This document shows positions 51,197-64,000 of a stretch of 64,000 bases of DNA, in pieces. Made by a program: the position numbers and the translations under genes. Below the pieces are notes generated by a model. It did no database searches. It was not told the origin of the DNA and saw nothing but the letters and a program-made list of their open reading frames with translations. This DNA comes from Opitutia bacterium (GTDB taxonomy: Bacteria; Verrucomicrobiota; Verrucomicrobiia; Opitutales; Opitutaceae): NCBI GenBank assembly GCA_947478395.1, contig CANJVR010000009.1, forward strand, positions 1 through 64,000, in the 5' to 3' direction. How positions within the stretch are numbered: the stretch's first letter is position 1; every line of letters starts with the position of its first letter.

Positions 51197-52045
51197 TCAG
51201 ACCAAGCGGCGCCAAGTCTCGCCCACGAGATCACGCATGAGCCGTTCGCACGTGGTCGCACTGTGATCGACCGCGGCGCGTAGTTGCCCTGCGTCGAGGG
51301 TGGCCCGGACGCAAACGGCCTCGAGTTCACGCGCGCTTGCCACACGTTCGATGCGCCGTCCCTCGGGAAAACTCCGCTCGCTGCGGCGGAGTTTCAGCTC
51401 ATGCAGCAGACGAAAATTAGTCTCGGCGAGTTCGCGGTGCAGCATGCGCTGGGCGGCGCTCAATTCGCCCCGCGCAATCTTGCGTAGCGTCCACAACTGC
51501 TCGCATGCGAACGCGTGCGCCAGGCCCCGCGCCGCCTCGTCGCTCAAGCGGAGATCCGGCACCTCGGCAACGACCTTCCGGTAAAACGGATCCCACGCTT
51601 CGCTGCCGTGCAAAAATCTCCAACCCGGCCGGATCACGATCGCGAGATCCTGCAGGCCCCGGCGTACTTTGCCTTCCATCCGATGCCGGCCAAGTAAGAC
51701 CAGCCATTTCAAAAGCCGCATCATGCCCGCCGACAGGATGACAAAATCGGTTTCCACGCCCGTGAATATGGCGTTCACCTTCGGCACACCCCCGATCCGC
51801 GCCACGCGCGAAGCGTAGGCGCGAATTTCGAAGTTTTTCCCAATTTCCCGGGTCCAATCCGAGTTGGAAAATCGTCCGGCTGCGCTCGTGATGATTTGAA
51901 AATCCCAGTCCGATTCCGGATCGGCGCGCCAGATTTCGTCGGTGGCTTTTCTTTCGCGCGAACCGATCAACACGAGCGCTTTCACGGCCGGCGTGCGCTG
52001 GGCCCAGGCAGTCATGGCTTCGCCAAAATCGACCGGGATACTCAC
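51197..52045 (-). CDS. Pol-beta superfamily nucleotidyltransferase (aminoglycoside-6/lincosamide NTase-like)
   Basis: LIGSR...D..SDWD motif, third acidic strand (ETDF) and helical C-terminal domain; GTGA overlap with the upstream gene. Confidence 0.65.
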   Translation of the reverse strand: MSIPVDFGEAMTAWAQRTPAVKALVLIGSRERKATDEIWRADPESDWDFQIITSAAGRFSNSDWTREIGKNFEIRAYASRVARIGGVPKVNAIFTGVETDFVILSAGMMRLLKWLVLLGRHRMEGKVRRGLQDLAIVIRPGWRFLHGSEAWDPFYRKVVAEVPDLRLSDEAARGLAHAFACEQLWTLRKIARGELSAAQRMLHRELAETNFRLLHELKLRRSERSFPEGRRIERVASARELEAVCVRATLDAGQLRAAVDHSATTCERLMRDLVGETWRRLV

Positions 52046-53823
52046 AGGCTGCGCAGTGAAATTAAAATTTCCGTGCCGTTCATACCCGGACCGGCGTGAA
52101 TTTCGCCGTGATGCAGACGTAATACCTCCTTCGCCAAAAATACACCGATACGGCCTTGATTGGGGACCAAGCCGTCAGCCGGCTCCGGCAGGATGCCTTC
52201 GAGCTCAAGGTGCTTGCCCTTGATCGACAGCATGGCGGTCAATTCATCCCCCTTACCAGCGGACCGCACCTGCAACGTCAGCTCTCCTCCGTTCAGGGCG
52301 AATCGGTTTTCAAGGACGGTGGCGATCAGCGAGCGCAGGGAGAATTCGATCAATTCCCTAGTGACCGAAAGTGGCACCGGGTCAGGGCCGACTTCGACGC
52401 GGAACCCAAGCACGGCGCCGACCCCCTGCGCGAGTTCGCGCAGATCAACGACCGAAGGCTTGGCCTCGTAGAGCGACTGCATGAGGCGGATGTTACCGTT
52501 CAGTGCCTCAAGTTTTGCGACGTCGCCCCGCGCCGCTTCGAGCAGAGGCGGTGGAATATTGTTTCCCGCTCCGGCCTGCCGGAACGTCGTGAGCGAGACC
52601 AGCGCGTTAGCCAATTCATGATTGAGAGTAAGACCGAGTTCGCGGAGCAGGGTCCGGCGATCAGCCCGCTCACGTTGGGCCATATCTTGCCGCTCGAGAC
52701 TCGCTTCCTCCCAAAACGCCCAGACTCCACCGGTTTCGACAATCGGACCGGAGCTCGCGCGAAAGGGTTGGCCCGGCTTTGGCGTGACGCGGCAGACGCC
52801 TTGGGCAACGCGCACATCCCCAATGAGCGCGCGCACGACAAGCGGGACCTGCCGTGGTGGATTTTCGTCGGGGCCCAAAATGAGAGTCCCCGGCAGATAT
52901 TTCGCCCCGAGTGTCGCCTGCTCCGCCAGATGGTGGAGACGCGCATATTGCCCACACTTCATCAGAAAATAGCGCAAGAGCCGCGCGTAATGGACCAGAC
53001 GGGTGCGATCGAACTCGTCGTAGGGCTGGCCATCATCGCGGACGCCGAGCGCAATAAGTCCCTGCAAGCGGCCGTTCTCGTGCATGGGTGCAAGCAACCG
53101 GGCGCCCCACAGCGCGAGCCGGTTGCGAATGGCCAGTTCCGCCACGGGATCGGCCGGGCCTTCCCACGACGATCCATCGACCACGATCGGATGAGTTTCA
53201 AAGAAAACCACCAAGGGATCATCGAGCCGAAAAAATGAGGTGCCTCGATCGGCGCGGAACCCGTCGGGCTCACGCAGAAAAAAAACCGCGTGCGACGCCC
53301 GCAGTAAATGGCGCGAGGCCCGGCGAAATTCCGCGATCAGCCGGTCGCGCGTATCCATCGTTTCAACTGCGGCCTCCAGGAAATCCCAAAGCTCAGCGGC
53401 GTCCACCAAAGGCTGCACTCGCGCGGTCGGCCGCACCGGCTCAGCGCGGCGGATCCGATCCGCCATTAGCTCAAGCATCGATTGTTTTTCTGCGACTTCC
53501 TCGACCAACGGCAGTAATTCCCGCAAGCGCACGGCGCTCTCTTCGTAGGAGAGATAAATTTTGGCGCGCCCTGACAGTTTCGCCTGCTCGTATGGCAGGC
53601 TGCGGGGTTCACCGACAAAAATAGTAGCACAACGCGCAAGCGCGGGCGGCAGGTCTGCTTCCGCCGCCGCATCCAAAACCACAACGGCTGCAAACCCCGG
53701 AGAAGTGCCGCTGGACAGCGCGTGCGGAATCATCCTCAGCGCCGTTTTTCCCGGCGCGACCTGTCGTTCCCACGCATCCCCCAAAGCGGAGTCCGACGTC
53801 GCGAGAATGATTAAGGTCGGCAT
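52042..53823 (-). CDS. Pseudo-receiver-GAF-HisKA protein with degenerate HATPase (pseudokinase/phosphotransferase)
   Basis: GAF-like LLAPM.ENGRL.GLIALG.R.DG.PY; H-box LNHELANAL; no N-box NA and no DxGxG; residual GRIGVFLAK...HHGEI. Confidence 0.65.
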   Translation of the reverse strand: MPTLIILATSDSALGDAWERQVAPGKTALRMIPHALSSGTSPGFAAVVVLDAAAEADLPPALARCATIFVGEPRSLPYEQAKLSGRAKIYLSYEESAVRLRELLPLVEEVAEKQSMLELMADRIRRAEPVRPTARVQPLVDAAELWDFLEAAVETMDTRDRLIAEFRRASRHLLRASHAVFFLREPDGFRADRGTSFFRLDDPLVVFFETHPIVVDGSSWEGPADPVAELAIRNRLALWGARLLAPMHENGRLQGLIALGVRDDGQPYDEFDRTRLVHYARLLRYFLMKCGQYARLHHLAEQATLGAKYLPGTLILGPDENPPRQVPLVVRALIGDVRVAQGVCRVTPKPGQPFRASSGPIVETGGVWAFWEEASLERQDMAQRERADRRTLLRELGLTLNHELANALVSLTTFRQAGAGNNIPPPLLEAARGDVAKLEALNGNIRLMQSLYEAKPSVVDLRELAQGVGAVLGFRVEVGPDPVPLSVTRELIEFSLRSLIATVLENRFALNGGELTLQVRSAGKGDELTAMLSIKGKHLELEGILPEPADGLVPNQGRIGVFLAKEVLRLHHGEIHAGPGMNGTEILISLRSL

Positions 53824-55814
53824 GGAAAGGTGACACGAAACGTCGCGCCCTGACCAAAGATCGGCTGGTCGGCCACAATCGTAGCATTAACATTGGCCAG
53901 AATGTCCCTACATATCGCCAGTCCAAGGCCAAAACCAGACGACTTGCTCGACTGAAAAGTTTCGAAAAGCCGCGGCCAAATATCCGGCGCAATCCCGGGG
54001 CCGCTGTCCGAAATCACTAACTCAATATTGTTTCCGACGTTGCGGGAAACGATTTTAATCCAGCGGTCGCCGGGCTGCGTTTCAACGGCTTGGATCGCGT
54101 TCAAGCAGAGATTGAGCACCACCTGCTTGACCGCGGCAGGATCCGTATAGATGGCATCGGGGGCGGCCAATAAGTCGGAGCGCAATGCGACATTAAAGCC
54201 TGCTGCTTTCGCCGCAACGAGATCAAGGCTCTCGCGTAGCACCGCATGGAGCTCCATCAATTTTGGGGAGTAAACCCTGGGCGCCGCCACATCCAACAAT
54301 TGTTCCGTCAGCCGATCTATGCGTCTAACTTCATCGCTGATGACGCGGAAAAATTTATCGCGGAAAGCCTGATCCTGATAGTGCTGCGGCAACAGTTGAA
54401 CAAAGGTCTTGATCGCAACGAGTGGATTTCTGATTTCGTGCGCCAAGCTGGCGCCTAGCAGGCCCACGGTAGCAAGTTGAGCAGCGTGCTGCGCCTTGGC
54501 GGAGAGGCTGGCCCGCTCGAGCGCGTTTGCTATAATCGCGGCAAGTTCCAGGAGCTGCAGAACCTGCGGGTAGGTGAACGGGCGCCTTGACGCAGCTAAA
54601 CCGACGCCGACCAACGCATTTAGCGTCGGCCCATCACAGGCGACCAAAATACCCAAATTTTGATCAGAGAGAAATTTCGCAAGAGCGACACGGGCAGGAC
54701 TAGGCCGTTCGCGAGCCAGCCGCTCAGGTGTCGCCCAGCGGATCTCCTTCATGAGCTGCGATTCGCTGGAATCCGCGGAAATTTCAATACCACCGCCTTG
54801 ATAAAAACCTGCAGCGCCGGAAAGCACTATCGCATGCTCGCTTCGTCCCCAACCCTTCAGGATGGAGAGAAATACACCTACAAGCTCTTCCATCTGAGCC
54901 TCCTTGCCAGCGGCAGAAAAAGCTGCCCGCCGAGCATTAATCACCTGAGGATAAGCTTGAAATGCGCGGTTGAGCCAGGCGTTCAATAAACCAGCAAACC
55001 ACAGCGTGAGAGCTGTCGTCGCCAGAAATTCAAGAGGGGGAGGAAAAATTGGACCCAAGCTCACGTTCAGCACCCATGCAAAAGCACAGCTCAGCAATAC
55101 CAGAACACTCTTTTCCGCGCATACTATCACTACTTGCCGTGCATCGAAGATGCGATGGGTGTTGATACCGATTACAGTAAATGCATACAGCACCAAAACA
55201 ATGATCGGCTGGAGCTGAATGGCAATACGCGCGTTAAAAACTGCACCGACAGCCATGAGTACTAAAACAGTTACAGCTACCGCACTACCGCCCAGCAAAA
55301 GGATTTGAAGCTCCAATCTAGCAGCGCCAGCCCGCGCTCGCATTTTAACAATGGTATCACTACAAAGACCGGCATAAAGTAACACAAGCCCGCCCATATA
55401 TGCGTAGTAACCAAAGCCGTAAATTTTATCACCTGCAGTAGAATGGGCCGGAACAAACCAGCCAGTAAAGCTGACGATCGCTAACGCCAGCGAACATAAA
55501 ACCCAAATCCACCCCCTGCATACAATAACTTTAATCCCCGGTGAACACTCAATAACAGCTTCTTTCAAAAGCCAAAGATGCAACGGGATAAAAGCTCCCG
55601 CAGCGGAAGATATTCGCACCCAAATAAGACCATTACTGCCTAGAGTTGCAATATAAACACAAGTAATCCACGCACTAACATGCACAGATAATGTGAAAAA
55701 CCATCGGTTTATTGCACGACGCGGATTAGCCCAGAAAGCAGCACAGCCGACAAGGAGAACGGCCACGGCAGCCAGCACCGCGGCAAAAGAACTTATTTGC
55801 TCATGACCAGACAT
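53811..55814 (-). CDS. Membrane sensor histidine kinase A (HisKA_7TM-like + GAF-like + HisKA + HATPase)
   Basis: About 9 hydrophobic helices starting W.NPRR.INR.F; AHEIRNPL, NLCLNA, DSGPGI, GFGLGL. Confidence 0.9.
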   Translation of the reverse strand: MSGHEQISSFAAVLAAVAVLLVGCAAFWANPRRAINRWFFTLSVHVSAWITCVYIATLGSNGLIWVRISSAAGAFIPLHLWLLKEAVIECSPGIKVIVCRGWIWVLCSLALAIVSFTGWFVPAHSTAGDKIYGFGYYAYMGGLVLLYAGLCSDTIVKMRARAGAARLELQILLLGGSAVAVTVLVLMAVGAVFNARIAIQLQPIIVLVLYAFTVIGINTHRIFDARQVVIVCAEKSVLVLLSCAFAWVLNVSLGPIFPPPLEFLATTALTLWFAGLLNAWLNRAFQAYPQVINARRAAFSAAGKEAQMEELVGVFLSILKGWGRSEHAIVLSGAAGFYQGGGIEISADSSESQLMKEIRWATPERLARERPSPARVALAKFLSDQNLGILVACDGPTLNALVGVGLAASRRPFTYPQVLQLLELAAIIANALERASLSAKAQHAAQLATVGLLGASLAHEIRNPLVAIKTFVQLLPQHYQDQAFRDKFFRVISDEVRRIDRLTEQLLDVAAPRVYSPKLMELHAVLRESLDLVAAKAAGFNVALRSDLLAAPDAIYTDPAAVKQVVLNLCLNAIQAVETQPGDRWIKIVSRNVGNNIELVISDSGPGIAPDIWPRLFETFQSSKSSGFGLGLAICRDILANVNATIVADQPIFGQGATFRVTFPCRP

Positions 55815-56995
55815 GCGTTTGTTCCTGAAAGACCGTGGGCATTTACTAGAGTAATCTGAGCCTGAAGTTTCCTGAAGTTTGAGCTCAAATTAAGGGCGCA
55901 TAGTGGATCAGGAAATTTCCAATTAACCGTTGGCGGCAGCAATCCATGGCGCAATCCAAGCGCGGAGCATGCTATTTGAATCGCACCGGCAGCGCCGAGA
56001 GGATTGCCGATTGCGCCCTTGATTGAGAAAACAGGGGTTTCCTCCACTCGTTCTCCCAACAAACGTGTGATCGCGACTGCTTCGGAGGCGTCGACCAAGC
56101 GATGCCCAGGACCCCATGCATTTACGGAATCAACATCAGAGACCTTATACCCACCGTTTGCGACCGCGAAGCGCATTGCGTCCATCATCCCTTCTCCGGG
56201 CATCTCAATAGAGTCGGTCGCGAATGCGTATCCATCAATAAATGCATAACCAGGGCGCGGACTGGAATCCGGTTCTAACACTAAAACACACGCCCCCTCG
56301 CCGATTACTCCAGTAGTTCGCCACAGGTCAAATGGTCTGCATTGGCGTTCCGGCCAATCCGAATTACCGGGCGCCAACCCAGCCATCTTCATTTCCAGCA
56401 TGGGGTGAAAGTACAACGGAGACTCCGTTCCGCCACAAATGGCTATATCCGTTCGGCCCTGAGCAACCATGTCGGCGCCATGGCCGATTGCATCAAGTCC
56501 CGAGCAACATGCACTTTGATACGCCATCGTACGAGTGGTGCCGCCGACAAGCTCACTGATAGTCCCAGCAATCGAGCTAACTGACGCAGAAAAAACCGAA
56601 GTTGGAAAGCCAATCACGGGCCCTTTTTTAACTATCATCTCAACTGTTTTGTTGATAGTCCCAAAATCCATTAGTGACGCCCCAACCAAAATAACAGCAT
56701 TTGTATTTTTAAGATCTTTTAATCTAAACCCAGCGTCCTTAGCTGCGAGTATTGCCGCAGCCACGGCTAGTTGCGTATGACGAGGCATACGTTTGTCGTG
56801 AATATCGGACACATAGTCATCTAATTTGAATGACTTGATTTCTGCACCGACGAATTGGCCCGCTTCTTCATAGAAACGGGTAATCGATCCGACGCGGCTG
56901 ACAGGCTCTAAGATACCTTTCCAGAAATTTTCCCTTCCAATTCCTGCTGGGGTAACCGGCCCGATACCCGTGATCTTTACACGTCGTCGCTTCAT
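55793..56995 (-). CDS. Beta-ketoacyl synthase (FabF/KS-alpha fold) with non-canonical active site Cys-Trp-Asn
   Basis: RRVKITGIG, SACCSG (Cys kept), RPFD...GEGA; NAWGPGH replaces NAHGTST; KGAIGNPLGAAG replaces KSMTGHLLGAAG. Confidence 0.85.
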   Translation of the reverse strand: MKRRRVKITGIGPVTPAGIGRENFWKGILEPVSRVGSITRFYEEAGQFVGAEIKSFKLDDYVSDIHDKRMPRHTQLAVAAAILAAKDAGFRLKDLKNTNAVILVGASLMDFGTINKTVEMIVKKGPVIGFPTSVFSASVSSIAGTISELVGGTTRTMAYQSACCSGLDAIGHGADMVAQGRTDIAICGGTESPLYFHPMLEMKMAGLAPGNSDWPERQCRPFDLWRTTGVIGEGACVLVLEPDSSPRPGYAFIDGYAFATDSIEMPGEGMMDAMRFAVANGGYKVSDVDSVNAWGPGHRLVDASEAVAITRLLGERVEETPVFSIKGAIGNPLGAAGAIQIACSALGLRHGLLPPTVNWKFPDPLCALNLSSNFRKLQAQITLVNAHGLSGTNACLVMSK

Positions 56996-57032
56996 CTAGA
57001 GCGAGCGGGGGGTGGGCGCATAACTCACGATT

Positions 57033-58184
57033 TTAAGCGCCCGGCTCCCGGGCCACGGGGACCACGATCCGAATCGTCGTCCCTTTCCCGTGTGCGGACG
57101 TCAGCTCGAACGTTCCGCCATGCGCACCTATTAGGTGCCGGCAGATGCTCAACCCCAACCCGGTTCCACCGGGTTTGCTGCTAAAACCTCCGCGCAATGC
57201 CCGCCTTACACGATCCGCGTCCATGCCAGATCCGTTGTCCACGATCAGAACTTCAAAATTATTTTCCTGGCGGGAAAAAGTTACCGTTAGAGCTGTCGCG
57301 CCCGCTTCCAAAGCATTCTTAAACGTATTTTGGAAAATCCGCATCAGCTCGTATTTCGAGCCGCGCACAACGGCGTTGGGTAGGCCCTCGTTGCGTATGG
57401 CGGGATTCCCGAAAAACAAAACCTGCCTCACATCCTCGGCCACGCTCACCAAATCCACCGGCCCAAATTCTGCAAGTTTCCTAAAGGACGATCTCCAATT
57501 CTCCGAGAGATGATGACAGTACTCCGCCGCTTTTTCGACAATTTCCGCGTAGCCCGTGAGCTTGCTCGCGATCTCCACTTCGTGCGCCGCAATCCTCCGT
57601 GCCTCCTCGGCCAGCAACGTCGCATAGCCAATCACGACCGTCAGCGGATTGTTCAAATCGTGCACGAGTTCGACCGATGCCCGCGCCTGCCAGATCTGCG
57701 GCTCGTTCCGCTCAATTTCTGACTTTAGCGCCACGTTCATCGCTTGCGCGTCCATCGCCAATTTCTCGTGAAGACGACGCATCCGCGTGGCCTCGACCTG
57801 CTGGCGGACCGCGTCGCGTAGTTCGGCTACGTCCGGCGGCTTGCGCAGGTATTGATTGGCTCCCGCCAGCATCGCCTGCTGGGCCGTCAGCAAAGTACCG
57901 TATCCGGTCAGCATGATCACCGAGACCTGCGAATCGATCTTACGCAGTTCCTCCAATGCGCGGATCCCATCCATCTCTGGCATGCGAATATCCATCACCA
58001 CCGCGGCATAGGAACGCTGCTTCAGCTTGGCTAGCGCCTCGCTCGCCCGTTCCGCCGTATCAACCGCAAACTCCGTCGACAACGTGAACGCAATCGACTC
58101 ACGCGGACCGTATTCGTCGTCGACCACTATAACCAGAGGCCGATCTGCCGACACAGCGGGAGCGGTAGATTTTTGCATCAACAT
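57033..58184 (-). CDS. Cytoplasmic hybrid receiver-histidine kinase (REC-HisKA-HATPase)
   Basis: VVDDE, MDIRMP, LTG, RKP; VHDLNNPL, NTFKNA, DNGSGM, GTGLGL. Confidence 0.9.
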   Translation of the reverse strand: MLMQKSTAPAVSADRPLVIVVDDEYGPRESIAFTLSTEFAVDTAERASEALAKLKQRSYAAVVMDIRMPEMDGIRALEELRKIDSQVSVIMLTGYGTLLTAQQAMLAGANQYLRKPPDVAELRDAVRQQVEATRMRRLHEKLAMDAQAMNVALKSEIERNEPQIWQARASVELVHDLNNPLTVVIGYATLLAEEARRIAAHEVEIASKLTGYAEIVEKAAEYCHHLSENWRSSFRKLAEFGPVDLVSVAEDVRQVLFFGNPAIRNEGLPNAVVRGSKYELMRIFQNTFKNALEAGATALTVTFSRQENNFEVLIVDNGSGMDADRVRRALRGGFSSKPGGTGLGLSICRHLIGAHGGTFELTSAHGKGTTIRIVVPVAREPGA

Positions 58185-58326
58185 TCTAAAGAGGCGCCCA
58201 AAAGAAACACGCCGAGCGCGAGACGGAGTTGTACCATGGGTAACGCGGGTTTGCAGTCTGCGTCGCACTCTGTCAAGGAGTGCGTCCCTCCGGTCGCTAC
58301 GCTGCCACGTCTTCATCTCTCACTCC

Positions 58327-59616
58327 GTGAATCTCGCCCTCGTTGTTCTCCTCTCAGCCTCTTCATCCAGCCTGTTCATCTGGCTCGTATTGCGGACCTA
58401 CTACGCACCCCGCTTTGAACGCCTGCGAGCGGCGGAGGAGAAGAATACCGGCTTGATTACAGAGTTGTCATCGCTGCGAAGCGCGCGTGACGAAATCGCC
58501 CTTCAGCTAACACGCGCCCAGAGCTATCTCGAGACCGAGCGAAGTGCTCATGAGCGCTTGGTCAGCGAATTCAAAGCGCTTTCGGCGGACGCGCTTCGCG
58601 CCAATCGCGCCGATTTTCTCGAGCAAGCCACCCAAGCATTCGCCCATCTCCAAACCCAGTCTTTGGGCGACCTCGAAAAGCGACAGCAGTCCATCGATGC
58701 TCTCGTCAAGCCCCTGCGCGAATCCCTCGAAAAAGTTGACGGCAAAATCGCCGACATCGAGAAGGCGCGCGCCACCGCCTATGGTGCGCTCGGCGAACAA
58801 TTGAAGCATCTCGGCGCGGCTCAACTTCAACTCCAAGCGGAAGCCGGGAAACTTTCGACCGCGCTTCGCTCCACTTCGTTTGCTGGCAGTTGGGGCGAAC
58901 TCCAACTTCGCCGCGTCGTAGAGATGGCGGATATGCTTCCTTACTGTGATTTCACGGAGCAAGAAACCGCCGCGGCCGGCGGCTTCCGCGCCGATCTTGT
59001 GGTCCGACTCCCCGGCGGACAACGCATCGTGGTTGACGCCAAGGCCCCACTTGAGGCGTACCGCGCCGCGGTGGATGCGACCGACGCCGGACTTCGCGAA
59101 ACCCGGCTTGCCGAACATGCCCAGAAAGTGCGTGGCCATATCGACGCGCTCGGCGCCAAGAATTACTGGGAGCAGTTCCAACCTGCTCCGGAATTCGTCG
59201 TTCTCTTCTTACCCGGCGATCACTTTCTCACGGCCGCGCTCTCCGCCGATTCGACATTGATGGACCGAGCCCTCAGCCGCCGCGTCTTACTCGCAACACC
59301 CACCACTTTAATCGCCCTCCTTAAAGCAGCTCACTATGGTTGGCGCCAGGAAGCGGTCTCAAAGAATGCCGACGAAATCAGCGCCCTGGGCCGGCAGCTG
59401 TATGATCGCGTGGTAGGATTCGCGGAAAACCTCGAAAAAGTCGGGCGCGGCCTCGACGGCGCGGTTAAAGGTTTCAATCAAGCCGTCGGCTCTTTCGAAG
59501 GCACCCTACTACCCGGCGCTCGGAAATTTGCTGAACTCGGAGCAAAGGGCACAAAAGACCTTATGACACCAAGCGGACTCGAAATCACGCCGAGAGAAAT
59601 CAATAAACGCAGCTAA
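58327..59616 (+). CDS. rmuC: DNA recombination protein RmuC
   Basis: N-terminal TM and coiled coil; GSWGELQL, D.VVRLPG...IVVDAK.P, PEFVVLFLP, TPTTLIALL. Confidence 0.92.
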   Translation: MNLALVVLLSASSSSLFIWLVLRTYYAPRFERLRAAEEKNTGLITELSSLRSARDEIALQLTRAQSYLETERSAHERLVSEFKALSADALRANRADFLEQATQAFAHLQTQSLGDLEKRQQSIDALVKPLRESLEKVDGKIADIEKARATAYGALGEQLKHLGAAQLQLQAEAGKLSTALRSTSFAGSWGELQLRRVVEMADMLPYCDFTEQETAAAGGFRADLVVRLPGGQRIVVDAKAPLEAYRAAVDATDAGLRETRLAEHAQKVRGHIDALGAKNYWEQFQPAPEFVVLFLPGDHFLTAALSADSTLMDRALSRRVLLATPTTLIALLKAAHYGWRQEAVSKNADEISALGRQLYDRVVGFAENLEKVGRGLDGAVKGFNQAVGSFEGTLLPGARKFAELGAKGTKDLMTPSGLEITPREINKRS

Positions 59617-59756
59617 CCCATCAACTGCTCCGTCCTTTTTTTACCTGCGTTTCTCTGCGTTCACCAAACCACGAAACATTTCGAACAGGATTTCGCGCAA
59701 CGCAGGCCGCGAAAACCGCCGCTACAAACTCTTTAGAAATCGCGCCCGATCGAATG

Positions 59757-59872
59757 CATTAACCATATTTCCATTTCCAATAAATTAAATAATTTCTAAA
59801 AACAAAACCCCACATATGCCAATACTATATTAAAAAATAAAATATAGATATATTTACAATAATAAATACCAA
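59757..59872. promoter_or_regulatory. Extremely AT-rich intergenic region upstream of sensor kinase B
   Basis: 59821-59870 has only 5 G/C in 50 nt; contains TATATT and TTTACA elements. Confidence 0.55.
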
Positions 59873-59952
59873 CTCCGCGTTCATTGCGAAGAGCGCCTAT
59901 TAAGGGCCGATCACGCCGCCAGCTCCAACGCACCAAGCAAAAGCACAAATCT

Positions 59953-62052
59953 ATGCCCATAATAATTATAGCCATCGCAATTTTCACCATAGCCCTGGGT
60001 GCTGTTGTCGCATGGGCAAACCCAGAGCGCTTGCTTAATCGCGCATTCTGTACCGCAGCCATCATCCAGGCCATCTGGCTCGGATGCGTCTATGCAATGA
60101 TTCTAGCAGGCTCTCGAGGCAATTTAGACGAGGTCGCTTTTTGGTTGAGGCTAAATGCAGCATTCTCCGCATTTTTTCCTCTTACACTTTGGTTAACCAA
60201 GGAACTTGTCTCAGTACCCAAGGACCACAAACGCCTGTTAATGAATTGTATCCCATGGATTCTCGCTGGCGTTCTATTAGCGTCGCTTGCGTACACACCT
60301 TCATTTGTTTTTCGAGGAACGAACCCTCAACGCTATGAGCGTGGACCTGGCTACTATTTATACGAGCTACTGGCGCTAACCATCTATTGCATTCTAGTAA
60401 CAGAAACGTTTCGAAAGATGCGAAGCCTAAGCGGCATGCGACGCATTGAAACTCAATTTCTCGCGATGAACCTAGTAATCGCCGGACTCATCGGAACACT
60501 TTTAACCGCAGTAGGCACTTATCTCGATAGCTCGGCATTAAAGAGACTGAGCATTGCCGCATTTTTCTGCGCTTACGCGGCCTCGGCTTGGGCCATAAGC
60601 ACACATCGCATATTCGAATTCCGTCAAGTTTTCACGTCGATTTCGCAACGGATTAGCGTCATAATTATATCTGGTGTTGGTGTAGCCAGCGCAACTTGGT
60701 TTCTCGATATTTTCCTACCCCAATATATCGCTCTTTTCATCAGTACATTATTTTTCGGAGCTTTAGCTTTTTTATTGGATCGCAAGTCGCGCGAGTGGCT
60801 CGACCTAAATAGGATGCGTCACCTTGCGAGATTTCGGCAGACTTTTATCGAGGTCGCGAAGCGCGAAGCGAGTCCGGACGAATTATGTCTGCGATTCTCA
60901 ACGTTATTGAGCGCCGAACATGGAACACTCCATGCCATGCTGCTGATCGATAAAGGTGTGGGAGTCCCTGAGTCGGCGCTAGAGATCTCCAAAAGCCGTC
61001 TTGGCTATTCCGCGCTCTGCCAGATGGGCTGGGCCACTCCTGAAAGTCTTGAGCGGCGACGGCCCGATCCAGCTTTGGCTGACTTGCAAGATTTCCTCTC
61101 TGAAAACAATCTCGGCGTGATTGTTACCAGTCCCCATGGCAGTGAAAGCCCCGCCTTGGTCGTTGCGTTAGGCAGGAAACCCAACGATTGGCCTTTCACT
61201 TACCCCGAGGTCCAGCGGCTTCAGAATATTGCCGAGCTGATGGATAGCATCCTCGCCCGCTCTCGCCTCGCCATGCAGGCCGCCATGCAGGTAAAACTGG
61301 AGCACATGGCGATGATGTCACGCGGCCTGGCCCACGATCTGAGCAATCTCATTACACCCATCTCGTCGTTTCTGATTTGCACCGATGGTAGATTCCCAGT
61401 CGGCACCACTGAAGCAGAGGTTCATTTCGCCGCGCGGCGCTCGATTCGGGTGATGGGCGAGTATGTCCGGGAGGCACTATTTTTTTCAGAGCGACTTTCT
61501 CCAAACTTCGAGCGCGTCGATCCTGGCGCGCTGTTTCGCGCGGTCCAAGACCTCACCACCGCCCAGGCCACCGAGCAAGGTGTCGTAATTTCGATCTCAT
61601 CCGATTATCATGACACGTTCCAAGGCGACACGATCCTCCTCCACCGCACGCTCGTCAATTTGGTGAATAATGCCCTCGACGCCTCAAAGACCGGTCAAGT
61701 TATTGAATTGTCCGCAACCGCTGGGCCCCTCGGCCGGGTCCTTATCAAAGTGAGCGATTGCGGCTCCGGCGTGCCGCCGGAAAACATTGCGCGGATTTTC
61801 GATCCTTATTTTACGACGAAACAGTTTGGCGCCGAAGTGCGCGGTTTTGGCCTGGGGCTGACTATCTGCCAAAAAATCGTGCATCTGCATCACGGGACCA
61901 TTTCGGTAAGTAGCAGGCCGAACCGAGGCACGACGTTCACCATCGACCTGCCCATTTCACCAGCCCCCAACGGTACTCGGATGACGCAAACCCGCGTTGC
62001 CCCCCAGCCGCGCGAGATCGCGATCGCAAGGCCTCAGCCCATCCTAACATGA
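59953..62052 (+). CDS. Membrane sensor histidine kinase B (paralogue of kinase A)
   Basis: WANP.R..NR.F plus multiple TM helices; WATPESL.RRRP and PFTYPEV shared with kinase A; AHDLSNL, NLVNNA, DCGSGV, GFGLGL. Confidence 0.9.
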   Translation: MPIIIIAIAIFTIALGAVVAWANPERLLNRAFCTAAIIQAIWLGCVYAMILAGSRGNLDEVAFWLRLNAAFSAFFPLTLWLTKELVSVPKDHKRLLMNCIPWILAGVLLASLAYTPSFVFRGTNPQRYERGPGYYLYELLALTIYCILVTETFRKMRSLSGMRRIETQFLAMNLVIAGLIGTLLTAVGTYLDSSALKRLSIAAFFCAYAASAWAISTHRIFEFRQVFTSISQRISVIIISGVGVASATWFLDIFLPQYIALFISTLFFGALAFLLDRKSREWLDLNRMRHLARFRQTFIEVAKREASPDELCLRFSTLLSAEHGTLHAMLLIDKGVGVPESALEISKSRLGYSALCQMGWATPESLERRRPDPALADLQDFLSENNLGVIVTSPHGSESPALVVALGRKPNDWPFTYPEVQRLQNIAELMDSILARSRLAMQAAMQVKLEHMAMMSRGLAHDLSNLITPISSFLICTDGRFPVGTTEAEVHFAARRSIRVMGEYVREALFFSERLSPNFERVDPGALFRAVQDLTTAQATEQGVVISISSDYHDTFQGDTILLHRTLVNLVNNALDASKTGQVIELSATAGPLGRVLIKVSDCGSGVPPENIARIFDPYFTTKQFGAEVRGFGLGLTICQKIVHLHHGTISVSSRPNRGTTFTIDLPISPAPNGTRMTQTRVAPQPREIAIARPQPILT

Positions 62053-63269
62053 GCCGGCGGATCGATCACCTCTTTACCCCTCGTATCCTTGTGGTGGATG
62101 ACGAGCAACAAATCCACGCCTCACTACGGCTACGATTGGCCAAGGACCACGAGATCGTTTCCTGTCTTGATCCCGCCGCCGCCCTTAGCGTGGTCGCCGA
62201 ATCCCAGTTCGATCTGTGCCTCGTCGACATCCATATGCCCGGAATGGATGGACTCACCTTCATCGAGGCCGCCCAAAAAAGCGATCCAGCGCTCGGCTTT
62301 GTGGTCCTCAGCGCGTTCGATTCAGCTGAAAATCTCCGCCGTACCATCCCGCTTCAGGTTTTTGAATTCGTGACGAAACCGTTCCCGGAACGACATGAAT
62401 TCGAGGCGCGCATCCCGGGCTGGGTCGACCGGACCCGCAAACAAAGGCAGGAGCAAAAACTCGCCCTAGACGCCGCCATCCTCAACCGCGAGCTCGAGTT
62501 CGCTCGTCAGGAACGCGAAATCGAGCTGGTTGCCTCGGAAACAGCCCGGGATGCGTTGCTCCAAACGACCAACCTGCTCACCACCGTCAACGCCCACCTC
62601 GACACAGCGGTGGCTCTCGTTGCCACAAAAGCCAAGGCTGACCTAGGTTCCGCCCCGCTGCTGCGGAATTTGGACGTGGCCCGAAAAACCGCCGACGCCG
62701 CGGTCACGGTGGCCGAAAAATTCTTCGGCTCTGCCTACGCCAACCGCGACTCTGCGCCAGCCTTCATCGATTCAGGCCTTCAGCATGCCATCCAGATTGC
62801 GCTGCGCATGAATATCGCCGGGATCGAAAGCAAAGCCGTGGATTTCTCCCCGGCCGATGGACGTTCGTTGGTGCGTGGGCTATCCGGCATCGATTTTCTC
62901 CTCATGATGATCCCGCTCGTTAGCCTCGCATTGATGGTGACCGAGCCGAACACCACCGTCGGCCTGCGGGCGGAAACGATCGGGCGACTCGACGTTGTTT
63001 CAAAAGACTCCCGGTTTCGGAACTATCTTTGGATCAACCGTCGCAACGCGCTCAGCAGCCAGCCGGGTGTCATGATTTCGCTGGCCGCAACCGCGCCGGC
63101 ATTCGCCCGTGCGGCGGCGGTAAGTTGGCTGAACGGGGACGATGGCCCGCTCGCCTCCAATACGCCGCGCGGGCTAGTTGCCGGCCTCCAAAAAAGCCGC
63201 GGCCTCCTAGGTCTGAGCATATCACCTCTTTGCGATCAGTTTCGAGTCTGTCTCGCTCTTCCCGGATAA
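62049..63269 (+). CDS. Response regulator: intact REC + coiled coil + degenerate kinase-like output domain
   Basis: VVDDE, VDIHMP, LSA, TKP; C-terminus has no recognisable H-, N- or G-boxes; ATGA overlap with kinase B. Confidence 0.8.
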   Translation: MSRRIDHLFTPRILVVDDEQQIHASLRLRLAKDHEIVSCLDPAAALSVVAESQFDLCLVDIHMPGMDGLTFIEAAQKSDPALGFVVLSAFDSAENLRRTIPLQVFEFVTKPFPERHEFEARIPGWVDRTRKQRQEQKLALDAAILNRELEFARQEREIELVASETARDALLQTTNLLTTVNAHLDTAVALVATKAKADLGSAPLLRNLDVARKTADAAVTVAEKFFGSAYANRDSAPAFIDSGLQHAIQIALRMNIAGIESKAVDFSPADGRSLVRGLSGIDFLLMMIPLVSLALMVTEPNTTVGLRAETIGRLDVVSKDSRFRNYLWINRRNALSSQPGVMISLAATAPAFARAAAVSWLNGDDGPLASNTPRGLVAGLQKSRGLLGLSISPLCDQFRVCLALPG

Positions 63270-63296
63270 GCCGAAGCGAAACCCTCACTGATCATC

Positions 63297-64000
63297 GTGC
63301 TCACGATCATCTCCAGTGTCGCACGGGAACGCGCTGCCTTCGCCGCGTTAAGCGACGCCCGCCGATGGGGCTACTCGGAGTGCGACAGCATCCGCGCATT
63401 CAAGAGGCTGCTGCAACACACCCGACCTGGAATTGTCTTAGTCCGACAGAAACTGAGCGATGGGTACTCGGATGACGTGATCGCGCTCTTGAAGGACAAC
63501 GGGGCTTCCGCCACGAAAATCGTGGTCCTACTTCCCGCCGGTTCACCGTCGGCGCTGGAGGCCCGCCAAATCGCGCTGGGCGCACATTGCGTGCAACGTG
63601 ATCCCGTTCGCACTGACGTGCTGGTCGAATATCTCAACCAATACCGCGTCCATTCGAAACACACCGCGAAAGCCTCTCCGGCGGCAGCGCCCACGTTCCC
63701 ATTCGCCGGCGCCACCATTCATTTCGTCGATCGAAAAATTGAATCAAAAGGAAAATCGGCGAGCCTGACCCCGCGCGAGCTCCAGCTCGCCGGGCTGCTT
63801 GGCGAATCCGCGGGGGCCGTGCTTTCATACGAAACTTTGTATAGCGAAATTCTCAGCCAGAAATTTCGGGGCGACACCAGCAACCTACGCGTGCTGCTCG
63901 GCAAGCTCGATGTTTCCGCGCGCCGCGCCGGCATCGCGCTCCGCAGCTGGGTCGAGGTGATTCCAAAACTGGGCTATCGGTATCGCGCCCCTTCATCCGA
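63297..64000 (+). CDS. OmpR/PhoB-type winged-helix regulator with pseudo-receiver, 3' end outside window (not in ORF track)
   Basis: Manual translation: MLTIISSVARER...PGIVLVRQKLSDG...GAHCVQRDP...LTPRELQLAGLL...VLSYETLY...TSNLRVLLGKL...EVIPKLGYRY; no stop before 64000. Confidence 0.8.
   Translation, partial: MLTIISSVARERAAFAALSDARRWGYSECDSIRAFKRLLQHTRPGIVLVRQKLSDGYSDDVIALLKDNGASATKIVVLLPAGSPSALEARQIALGAHCVQRDPVRTDVLVEYLNQYRVHSKHTAKASPAAAPTFPFAGATIHFVDRKIESKGKSASLTPRELQLAGLLGESAGAVLSYETLYSEILSQKFRGDTSNLRVLLGKLDVSARRAGIALRSWVEVIPKLGYRYRAPSS

Follow-up and report, generated by a model that had tools for sequence, protein, structure and literature searches.

The window analysed here, the first 64,000 nucleotides of contig CANJVR010000009.1 (assembly GCA_947478395.1, forward strand) of an Opitutia bacterium of the family Opitutaceae (Verrucomicrobiota), carries a minus-strand operon in which the gene of a stand-alone ketosynthase (KS) directly precedes that of kinase A, a histidine kinase with a seven-transmembrane (7TM) sensor domain. 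The arrangement is far beyond chance, because it recurs in 143 of 149 other loci of the family; in three the kinase does not follow, and three stop at a contig edge. We consider it rather probable that the operon encodes a quorum-sensing-like system, in which an acyl signal made by the KS would be read by the 7TM domain. Gene order, gene overlaps, residues, co-occurrence and co-divergence are the observed basis, and this is the best reading since KS homologues adjoin 7TM kinases and KS and sensor domain are congruent. An earlier interpretation of the bare letters, here called the sequence-only reading, had proposed that either a KS-derived lipid signal or a KS serving as acyl sensor enters a branched phosphorelay via 7TM kinases. 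The signal remains the best explanation, though unproven, whereas the branched relay did not hold as the general form.

Gene order and distribution of the operon

Every gene named in the sequence-only reading was found at its position, and the observation as a whole was borne out. The operon begins with a soluble hybrid of receiver and histidine kinase (REC-HK; 383 aa, 57033-58184, minus strand, as all its genes), which carries the Pfam domains REC, HisKA and HATPase and belongs to the core relay. It is followed by the KS (400 aa, 55793-56995), the candidate signal synthase with a FabF fold according to Pfam and a structure model, and by the candidate receptor kinase A (667 aa, 53811-55814), composed of HisKA_7TM sensor, GAF-like, HisKA and HATPase domains. 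A kinase with degenerate receiver, GAF, PAS-like, H-box and degenerate ATPase domains, termed half-dead kinase (593 aa, 52042-53823), and a nucleotidyltransferase (NT; 282 aa, 51197-52045) similar to ANT(6)/Adenyl_transf complete the operon. The overlaps of 22, 13 and 4 nt between the last four genes were reproduced exactly. Upstream lies a promoter-like motif (58249-58276, minus strand; TTGACA, 16-nt spacer, GCAAAC) of presumed promoter function, with one match in the window versus 0.02 expected. A looser form precedes REC-HK in 88 of 137 loci; none of the internal genes is preceded by it. Co-transcription of the operon is likely from this pattern. A sigma-54-like site upstream of REC-HK occurred in 0 of the 137 loci, and a generic scan for promoters and terminators performed no better than chance.

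Of 401 genomes of the window's family, 150 have the KS, each in a single copy. In a phylum sample searched at E 1e-90 17 of 401 genomes were positive, all from this family, and other families had no match. The relatives compared with the window are designated by locus (L) and genome (G) numbers. Of the 149 other family loci, 144 have REC-HK. The half-dead kinase was found in 137, with a further 10 that could not be assessed; for the NT the figures are 126 present, four absent and 19 not assessable. Some members of a sister clade of KSs carry the labels Kiritimatiellia and Pontiella desulfatans, and 40 further genomes of the phylum scored at least 494 bits against this clade. At least 530 metagenome matches to it were obtained, and the best 80, of which 49 are distinct at 90 %, served as distant set. 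These KSs are 33-40 % identical to that of the window and were grouped with it at a support of 0.96. A 7TM kinase followed the KS in 75 of the 80 loci, the remaining five ending within 300 nt. KS homologues in the family as well as in the distant set are thus located beside a 7TM kinase and not within fab or polyketide synthase (PKS) clusters. For the whole operon, the possibility of a recent island was rejected, because the same housekeeping neighbours occur across 27 of 63 genera; within the operon of the window, the low GC content is limited to the block of KS and 7TM region.

Some loci deviate from the common order. In G460 (L041) the half-dead kinase directly follows the KS, and the NT is situated at a distance of 1.9 Mb, immediately upstream of a different 7TM kinase. 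Decaying copies were seen as well: REC-HK is split in L171 and L172; in addition, L171 has a fragmented kinase A, and L172 has a split KS and no kinase A. A 4.9-kb contig labelled Polyangiaceae (L004) shows the same gene order, its KS being 61 % identical to that of the window, and is possibly misbinned.

Residues and predicted chemistry of the ketosynthase

The FabF-like nature of the KS was confirmed by Pfam (1e-30 and 2e-19) and by a structure model (predicted local distance difference test, pLDDT, of 93.9) with a template modelling (TM) score of 0.95 to B. subtilis FabF (4ls5). The protein reached 249 bits against the FabF/KAS II model TIGR03150, which has a cut-off of 494. Aligned to 4ls5 and to the genome's own FabF, it shares with them the catalytic cysteine (Cys163) and the equivalents of Lys335, Asp311 and Glu314, in what we take to be the FabF numbering. 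It differs in Trp294 at the site of His303, in Asn331 at the site of His340 and in the motif NAHGLSG in place of NSFGFGG. Among 148 aligned family KSs, a count that leaves out the low-scoring loci L172 (broken) and L173 (without the cysteine), Cys163 and a new His298 were kept throughout. The first histidine site was occupied by Trp in 143, Cys in two, Ser in two and Val in one; the second held Asn, Thr or Ser and in no case His. The distant KSs have the cysteine in 80 of 80, and Tyr (62), His (17) or Trp (1) at the first site; the Asn of their triad was fixed by the search pattern.

Since both histidines are gone and Cys163 is retained, the KS is likely unable to elongate; the residue pattern suggests that it likely carries and transfers an acyl chain, i.e., acts as a non-elongating acyltransferase. 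According to the accessible part of PMC4661987, a missing first histidine is the mark of KS domains that do not elongate. The sequence-only reading had invoked PpyS and DarB as precedents. The idea of a signal synthase, a likely role of this KS, was upheld, but a condensation of the PpyS/DarB or FabF type cannot be assumed for an enzyme devoid of the catalytic histidines. As reported before, neither a fab or PKS gene nor an acyl carrier protein (ACP) is encoded in the region. The only ACP found in a motif scan of the genome adjoins the true FabF on contig C2, and in the 150 KS loci two short ACP-like motif matches were obtained, neither resembling an ACP. An ordinary FabF paralogue or the remainder of a broken fab cluster was ruled out by the triad, the context and the separate FabF with its ACP.

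Co-divergence of ketosynthase and sensor domain

The congruence of KS and sensor domain, for which the sequence-only reading had suggested a tree comparison, was present, with linkage and conflicting splits as caveats. Across 110 loci with all five genes, the distances of KS and 7TM region retained a partial r of 0.47 after removal of the kinase-core signal; for other parts it was at most 0.14. Residual Spearman coefficients for sister pairs of the core tree were 0.83 (31 pairs) and, without near-identical pairs, 0.76 (27 pairs), in contrast to -0.13 and -0.12 for the kinase domain of REC-HK, which lies upstream and equally close to the KS. In sliding windows the identity drops inside the KS and recovers past the 7TM region, with the flanks staying high. 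For L123/L153 the synonymous divergence (dS) was 0.43 in REC-HK, 1.36 in KS, 1.92 in the 7TM region, 0.59 in the kinase core, 0.54 in the half-dead kinase and 0.53 in NT. This pair, L123/L158 and L129/L151 had a raised synonymous divergence solely over KS and 7TM region, and matched pairs such as L037/L158 revealed strong purifying selection on both alike. The limitation of the rise in dS to these two parts, together with the purifying selection in matched pairs, indicates block replacement and not a fast drift. KS and 7TM domain thus appear to be swapped as one block between close relatives. To our analysis this co-divergence is new.

The window itself has such a low-GC variable cassette (55080-56995, minus strand), formed by the KS and the 7TM-coding part of kinase A and delimited by the GC content at third codon positions (GC3), identity profiles and dS. 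GC3 is 0.475 for the KS and 0.419 for the 7TM part, compared to 0.68-0.72 for REC-HK, half-dead kinase and NT; the total GC content is 0.505 for the KS and 0.472 for the 7TM part, with a genome value of about 0.61. The nearest relative by kinase core (81 %) shares only 50 % identity in the KS and 44 % in the 7TM region. Among 56 overlapping pairs with cores at least 85 % identical, with cut-offs picked after the list had been seen, all 29 with a diverged 7TM region also diverged in KS (25) or NT (4). The correlation of NT and 7TM region, 0.60-0.65, may partly reflect that both are fast. The pair L050/L051 is no clean swap.

The kinase core and loci without an intact ketosynthase

The N-terminus of kinase A was assigned to HisKA_7TM (PF16927) by Atlas features (0.94) and structure matches. 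The Pfam model had no match in the window's kinase A itself and matched 5 of 90 homologues; a hydropathy scan yielded only 5-6 helices at the cut-off, so that the label 7TM depends on the family match. The GAF domain was assigned via homologues. The H-box AHEIRNPL is present in 138 of 138 homologues of kinase A, with intact N, G1 and G2 boxes, and all 137 aligned homologues of REC-HK retain Asp65 and His175. Phosphorylation and ATP-binding motifs of both kinases are intact in essentially all homologues. The third kinase had been read as a pseudokinase. Its N, G1 and G2 boxes are indeed degenerate, judged against ZraS, but the H-box histidine and the receiver aspartate are still there: of 134 rows, 132 have His402 and 131 have Asp51, and the others have gaps. 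Distant homologues are intact GAF-PAS kinases. The conserved residues point to a likely phosphotransfer protein. ChpT-type phosphotransferases relay phosphate with an H-box and a dead ATPase domain; the half-dead kinase likewise keeps the H-box beside a degenerate ATPase domain and differs in its additional receiver, GAF and PAS-like parts.

Thirteen loci with a strong match to kinase A and no KS match at E 1e-75 were fetched. Eleven hold all three kinases without KS and NT, one has a KS lacking the cysteine and no NT, and one ends at a contig edge. The 11 loci belong to four genera and are not independent. Because the kinase trio persists in them without KS, the three kinases are the core and the KS is an add-on to the relay. 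The KS is embedded among signalling genes, as the sequence-only reading had it, but is not integral to the relay, and a role as obligate relay component was ruled out. The KS-less loci L174-L176, L179 and L180 adjoin genes resembling, by eye, a sugar transferase and a polysaccharide-related membrane protein.

Two full-length KSs, L173:10992-12188 (minus strand) and L185:8117-9301 (plus strand), lack Cys163 and His298, share 55 % identity and still precede kinase A. All loci without KS (11/11) and both with a Cys-less KS (2/2) are devoid of NT. Genome-wide searches found no NT in the genomes of L173 and L185; over all tested genomes without intact KS, it was missing from four of four, and it is kept in G460, where the KS is intact. 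The Cys-less KS is retained under purifying selection (dN 0.41, dS 1.9; dN/dS about 0.21), which points to a non-catalytic role. This would suit a KS that binds kinase A as a cytoplasmic subunit and reports the acyl-ACP or acyl-coenzyme A (acyl-CoA) state by acylation of Cys163, without a diffusible signal. The absence of both histidines, the persistence of the kinases without KS in 11 loci and the gap between KS and kinase A of at most 30 nt in 135 of 137 loci, suggestive of stoichiometric production, agree with such a sensor, and a direct contact would likewise yield the co-divergence of KS and 7TM region. However, it leaves unexplained the repeated cassette exchange, the loss of NT alongside that of the cysteine and the oxidase, FadL and methyltransferase neighbours described below, and two loci, L041 and L086, retain the KS without an adjoining kinase A. 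We regard this main alternative as unlikely, and an acyl signal and an acyl sensor can both hold in part. Even as a sensor, a condensing-enzyme fold reporting acyl groups to a kinase would be unusual.

Nucleotidyltransferase and candidate tailoring neighbours

The NT was correctly named in the sequence-only reading: Atlas features (0.96-0.98) and a TM score of 0.82 placed it in the ANT(6)/Adenyl_transf fold. Gly28, Asp46 and Asp48 occur in 123 of 123 homologues and the GS/DxD motif of ANT(6), an adenylyltransferase of the Pol-beta fold, is present, at 10.8 bits against PF04439 and thus below the cut-off of 22. The enzyme likely acts on the product of the KS. Antibiotic-inactivating adenylyltransferases have this fold, and the KS pathway could alternatively give rise to an antagonistic metabolite, with the ANT(6)-like enzyme as self-protection and the 7TM kinase as monitor of the compound. 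Producer and immunity pairs diversify as cassettes, and the loss of NT together with the active KS would be in line with immunity. Yet an adjoining exporter or a larger biosynthetic cluster is not conserved, the 80 distant loci had no NT match, and three kinases for one enzyme look regulatory, so we hold this explanation to be hardly probable at all.

Other candidate tailoring enzymes are lineage-specific. An FAD-linked oxidase directly precedes the KS in 19 of 149 family loci and lies near it in four distant loci; the window's genome had no match. In the 17 distant loci with a Cys-His-Asn (C-H-N) triad, a FadL-type channel was found in ten, an O-methyltransferase in four and a B12 radical SAM enzyme in three. 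FadL of Sinorhizobium imports long-chain acyl-homoserine lactone signals (PMC9938287, accessible part). In the clade of KSs with a Cys-Tyr-Asn (C-Y-N) triad, a protein of about 810 aa with only the N-terminal domain of lantibiotic dehydratases follows the REC-kinase in 34 of 62 loci, e.g., L207:3959-6409 (minus strand) and L265:4003-6468 (minus strand); 36 of these 62 loci have at least 1.5 kb upstream. This protein could likewise take part in tailoring.

The presence of FadL channels along with enzymes that tailor small molecules suggests a diffusible hydrophobic compound. This argues against a third alternative, in which the KS acylates a cell-bound target, be it a surface lipid, a glycan, a protein or the kinase itself, for contact-dependent kin or envelope sensing. 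A KS reduced to its cysteine does suit acyl transfer by the KS0 logic (PMC4661987, in the part available), any kin label could be exchanged as a cassette, and kinase A has a weak similarity to PrsK, the kinase of the PEP-CTERM/exopolysaccharide system (75 bits against TIGR02916, cut-off 300). The operon is without a conserved surface-structure gene, and a cell-bound target appears very unlikely to us.

Proposed mechanism and its weighing

In the favoured reading, a diffusible acyl signal, Cys163 of the KS would be loaded with an acyl group drawn from the acyl-ACP or acyl-CoA of housekeeping metabolism; without the decarboxylating histidines, the enzyme would hand it to an acceptor with no elongation. 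FAD oxidase, O-methyltransferase and radical SAM enzyme could tailor the product in particular lineages, and the NT may modify or inactivate it. Bound by the 7TM domain of kinase A, the product would alter the phosphorylation of His459, and phosphate could pass on via the REC-kinase and the half-dead kinase, the latter having retained its His and Asp. The output in the window would likely be the arm of kinase B and an OmpR-type regulator treated below, and in most relatives would be located elsewhere. Signal types would arise from the exchange of KS and 7TM domain as a unit, and lineages that have no KS would merely listen.

Several observations weigh against this mechanism. Both FabF histidines are missing from the KS, and the Cys-less KS of L173 and L185 is under purifying selection. 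The trees of KS and 7TM region share 26 of the 63 supported KS splits and conflict in 29, and four close pairs retain the KS at 82-86 % though the 7TM region drops to 40-45 %. The 7TM region is fast-diverging in KS-less lineages too, and it adjoins the KS, so linkage inflates the correlation. L041 and L086 keep a KS apart from kinase A, the KS-less loci of four genera may stem from few independent losses, and the core is without a DNA-binding output.

The operon likely represents an undescribed cell-to-cell communication system, with a kin-specific chemical signal that is likely made by the KS and would be read by the kinase. If true, the Verrucomicrobiota would gain a cell-to-cell signalling system, the HisKA_7TM sensor family a ligand, and a ketosynthase clade annotated simply as FabF a new chemistry. 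A phylum-wide quorum-sensing language with a new class of autoinducers, written by a non-elongating FabF descendant, edited by NT or oxidase and read by HisKA_7TM, with dozens of cassette-swapped types and listener-only lineages, is a tentative extension, somewhat less probable than not. For direct tests the system offers one enzyme of 400 aa, a naturally dead variant and, on kinase cores 95-99 % identical, three types of cassette (L037/L158, L123 and L153).

Comparison with known systems

By membership the system is not FabF, PpyS, PrsK or Phc; by analogy it likely works like Phc. In the phcBSRQ operon of Ralstonia the gene of a synthase for a fatty-acid-derived signal directly precedes the sensor kinase gene, followed by soluble receiver or kinase proteins devoid of DNA-binding domains. 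Synthase and sensor show a common variation, separate from that of the downstream proteins: PhcB and PhcS group by signal type, PhcR and PhcQ follow the phylotype (PMC8578825, accessible part). The likeness is one of arrangement and variation. PhcB is a methyltransferase (same source), whereas the candidate synthase here is a FabF-fold KS, the sensor is of the HisKA_7TM-GAF type, and a half-dead kinase and an NT are added.

PpyS and DarB are stand-alone ketosynthases; they draw on fatty-acid pools for their signals and do not decarboxylate malonyl units. PpyS has the triad C129, H281, N310, is modelled on OleA, uses Glu105 and signals via the LuxR-type PluR (PMC4578411, as far as available). 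A C-H-N triad occurs in 17 of the 80 distant loci, with the Asn preset by the search pattern. In contrast, the KS of the window combines a FabF scaffold (TM 0.95) with a C-W-N triad and a membrane kinase. A LuxR-type receptor was absent among the genes of the region and their conserved neighbours; the genomes were not searched for LuxR.

PrsK/PrsR resembles the system in its transmembrane kinase with an uncharacterised sensor, and an NtrC-type sigma-54 regulator ends four of the 80 distant loci. The stimulus of PrsK is called obscure, and a KS is not mentioned in the accessible part of PMC1569441. Against the PrsK model TIGR02916, 75 and 82 bits were obtained with a cut-off of 300, and a tandem PrsR, searched for as NtrC-like match, was seen in just 1 of 162 fetched family loci. 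In the agr and comQXP systems the signal gene and the sensor N-terminus also vary as a block; their signals are peptides, unlike the proposed acyl signal. The accessible part of PMC5199041 gave no support for the comQXP comparison.

In the literature searched, mostly without subscription journals or supplements, no published description of the KS-kinase module and no comparable cell-to-cell signalling system of Verrucomicrobiota was found, and the HisKA_7TM family was represented by archaeal and eukaryotic kinases only (including those in the accessible part of PMC5847659).

The optional arm and neighbouring genes

Beyond rmuC a plus-strand arm encodes kinase B (699 aa, 59953-62052), a protein of REC and degenerate kinase (406 aa, 62049-63269; Pfam REC) and an OmpR-type regulator with pseudo-receiver (260 aa, 63297-64000 in the window, ending at 64079 in the contig; Trans_reg_C 1e-6). 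The paralogy of kinases A and B was verified by a full-length match (28 %, E 2e-67). Kinase B has the H-box histidine in 16 of 16 sequences and a GC content of 0.479 in its transmembrane part. In the 406-aa protein Asp60 is present in 14 of 14, and Gln occupies the apparent H-box site, placed by eye, in 14 of 14. The pseudo-receiver of the OmpR-type protein was likewise recovered: 13 of 13 sequences have Arg where the phospho-Asp site, again placed by eye, appears to be. A branching of the relay through this arm had been proposed as part of the system. The arm was found in only 25 of 381 genomes, which rules it out as the general output; it is linked but optional. Among the 24 other arm-bearing genomes 17 have a KS match, and seven are assemblies of 130-630 contigs. 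For 13 of the 149 loci the arm falls within the fetched stretch, where its position varies. A motif shared upstream of kinase B was not visible by eye in 16 loci. In the window, kinase B is preceded by an A+T-rich gap (59617-59952, GC 0.41), a likely promoter region of the arm.

The gene rmuC (about 58327 to 59616, plus strand; Pfam RmuC) separates operon and arm. Start positions were refined for REC-HK (58184), rmuC (about 58327) and kinase B (59953). With a varying position, rmuC was present in 123 of 149 loci; it was not seen among those metagenome loci whose open reading frames were listed, a partial listing. It is probably a long-standing neighbour outside the system. In L103, L104, L132, L142, L145 and L168 rmuC is replaced by a second kinase A-like gene, divergent and upstream of REC-HK.

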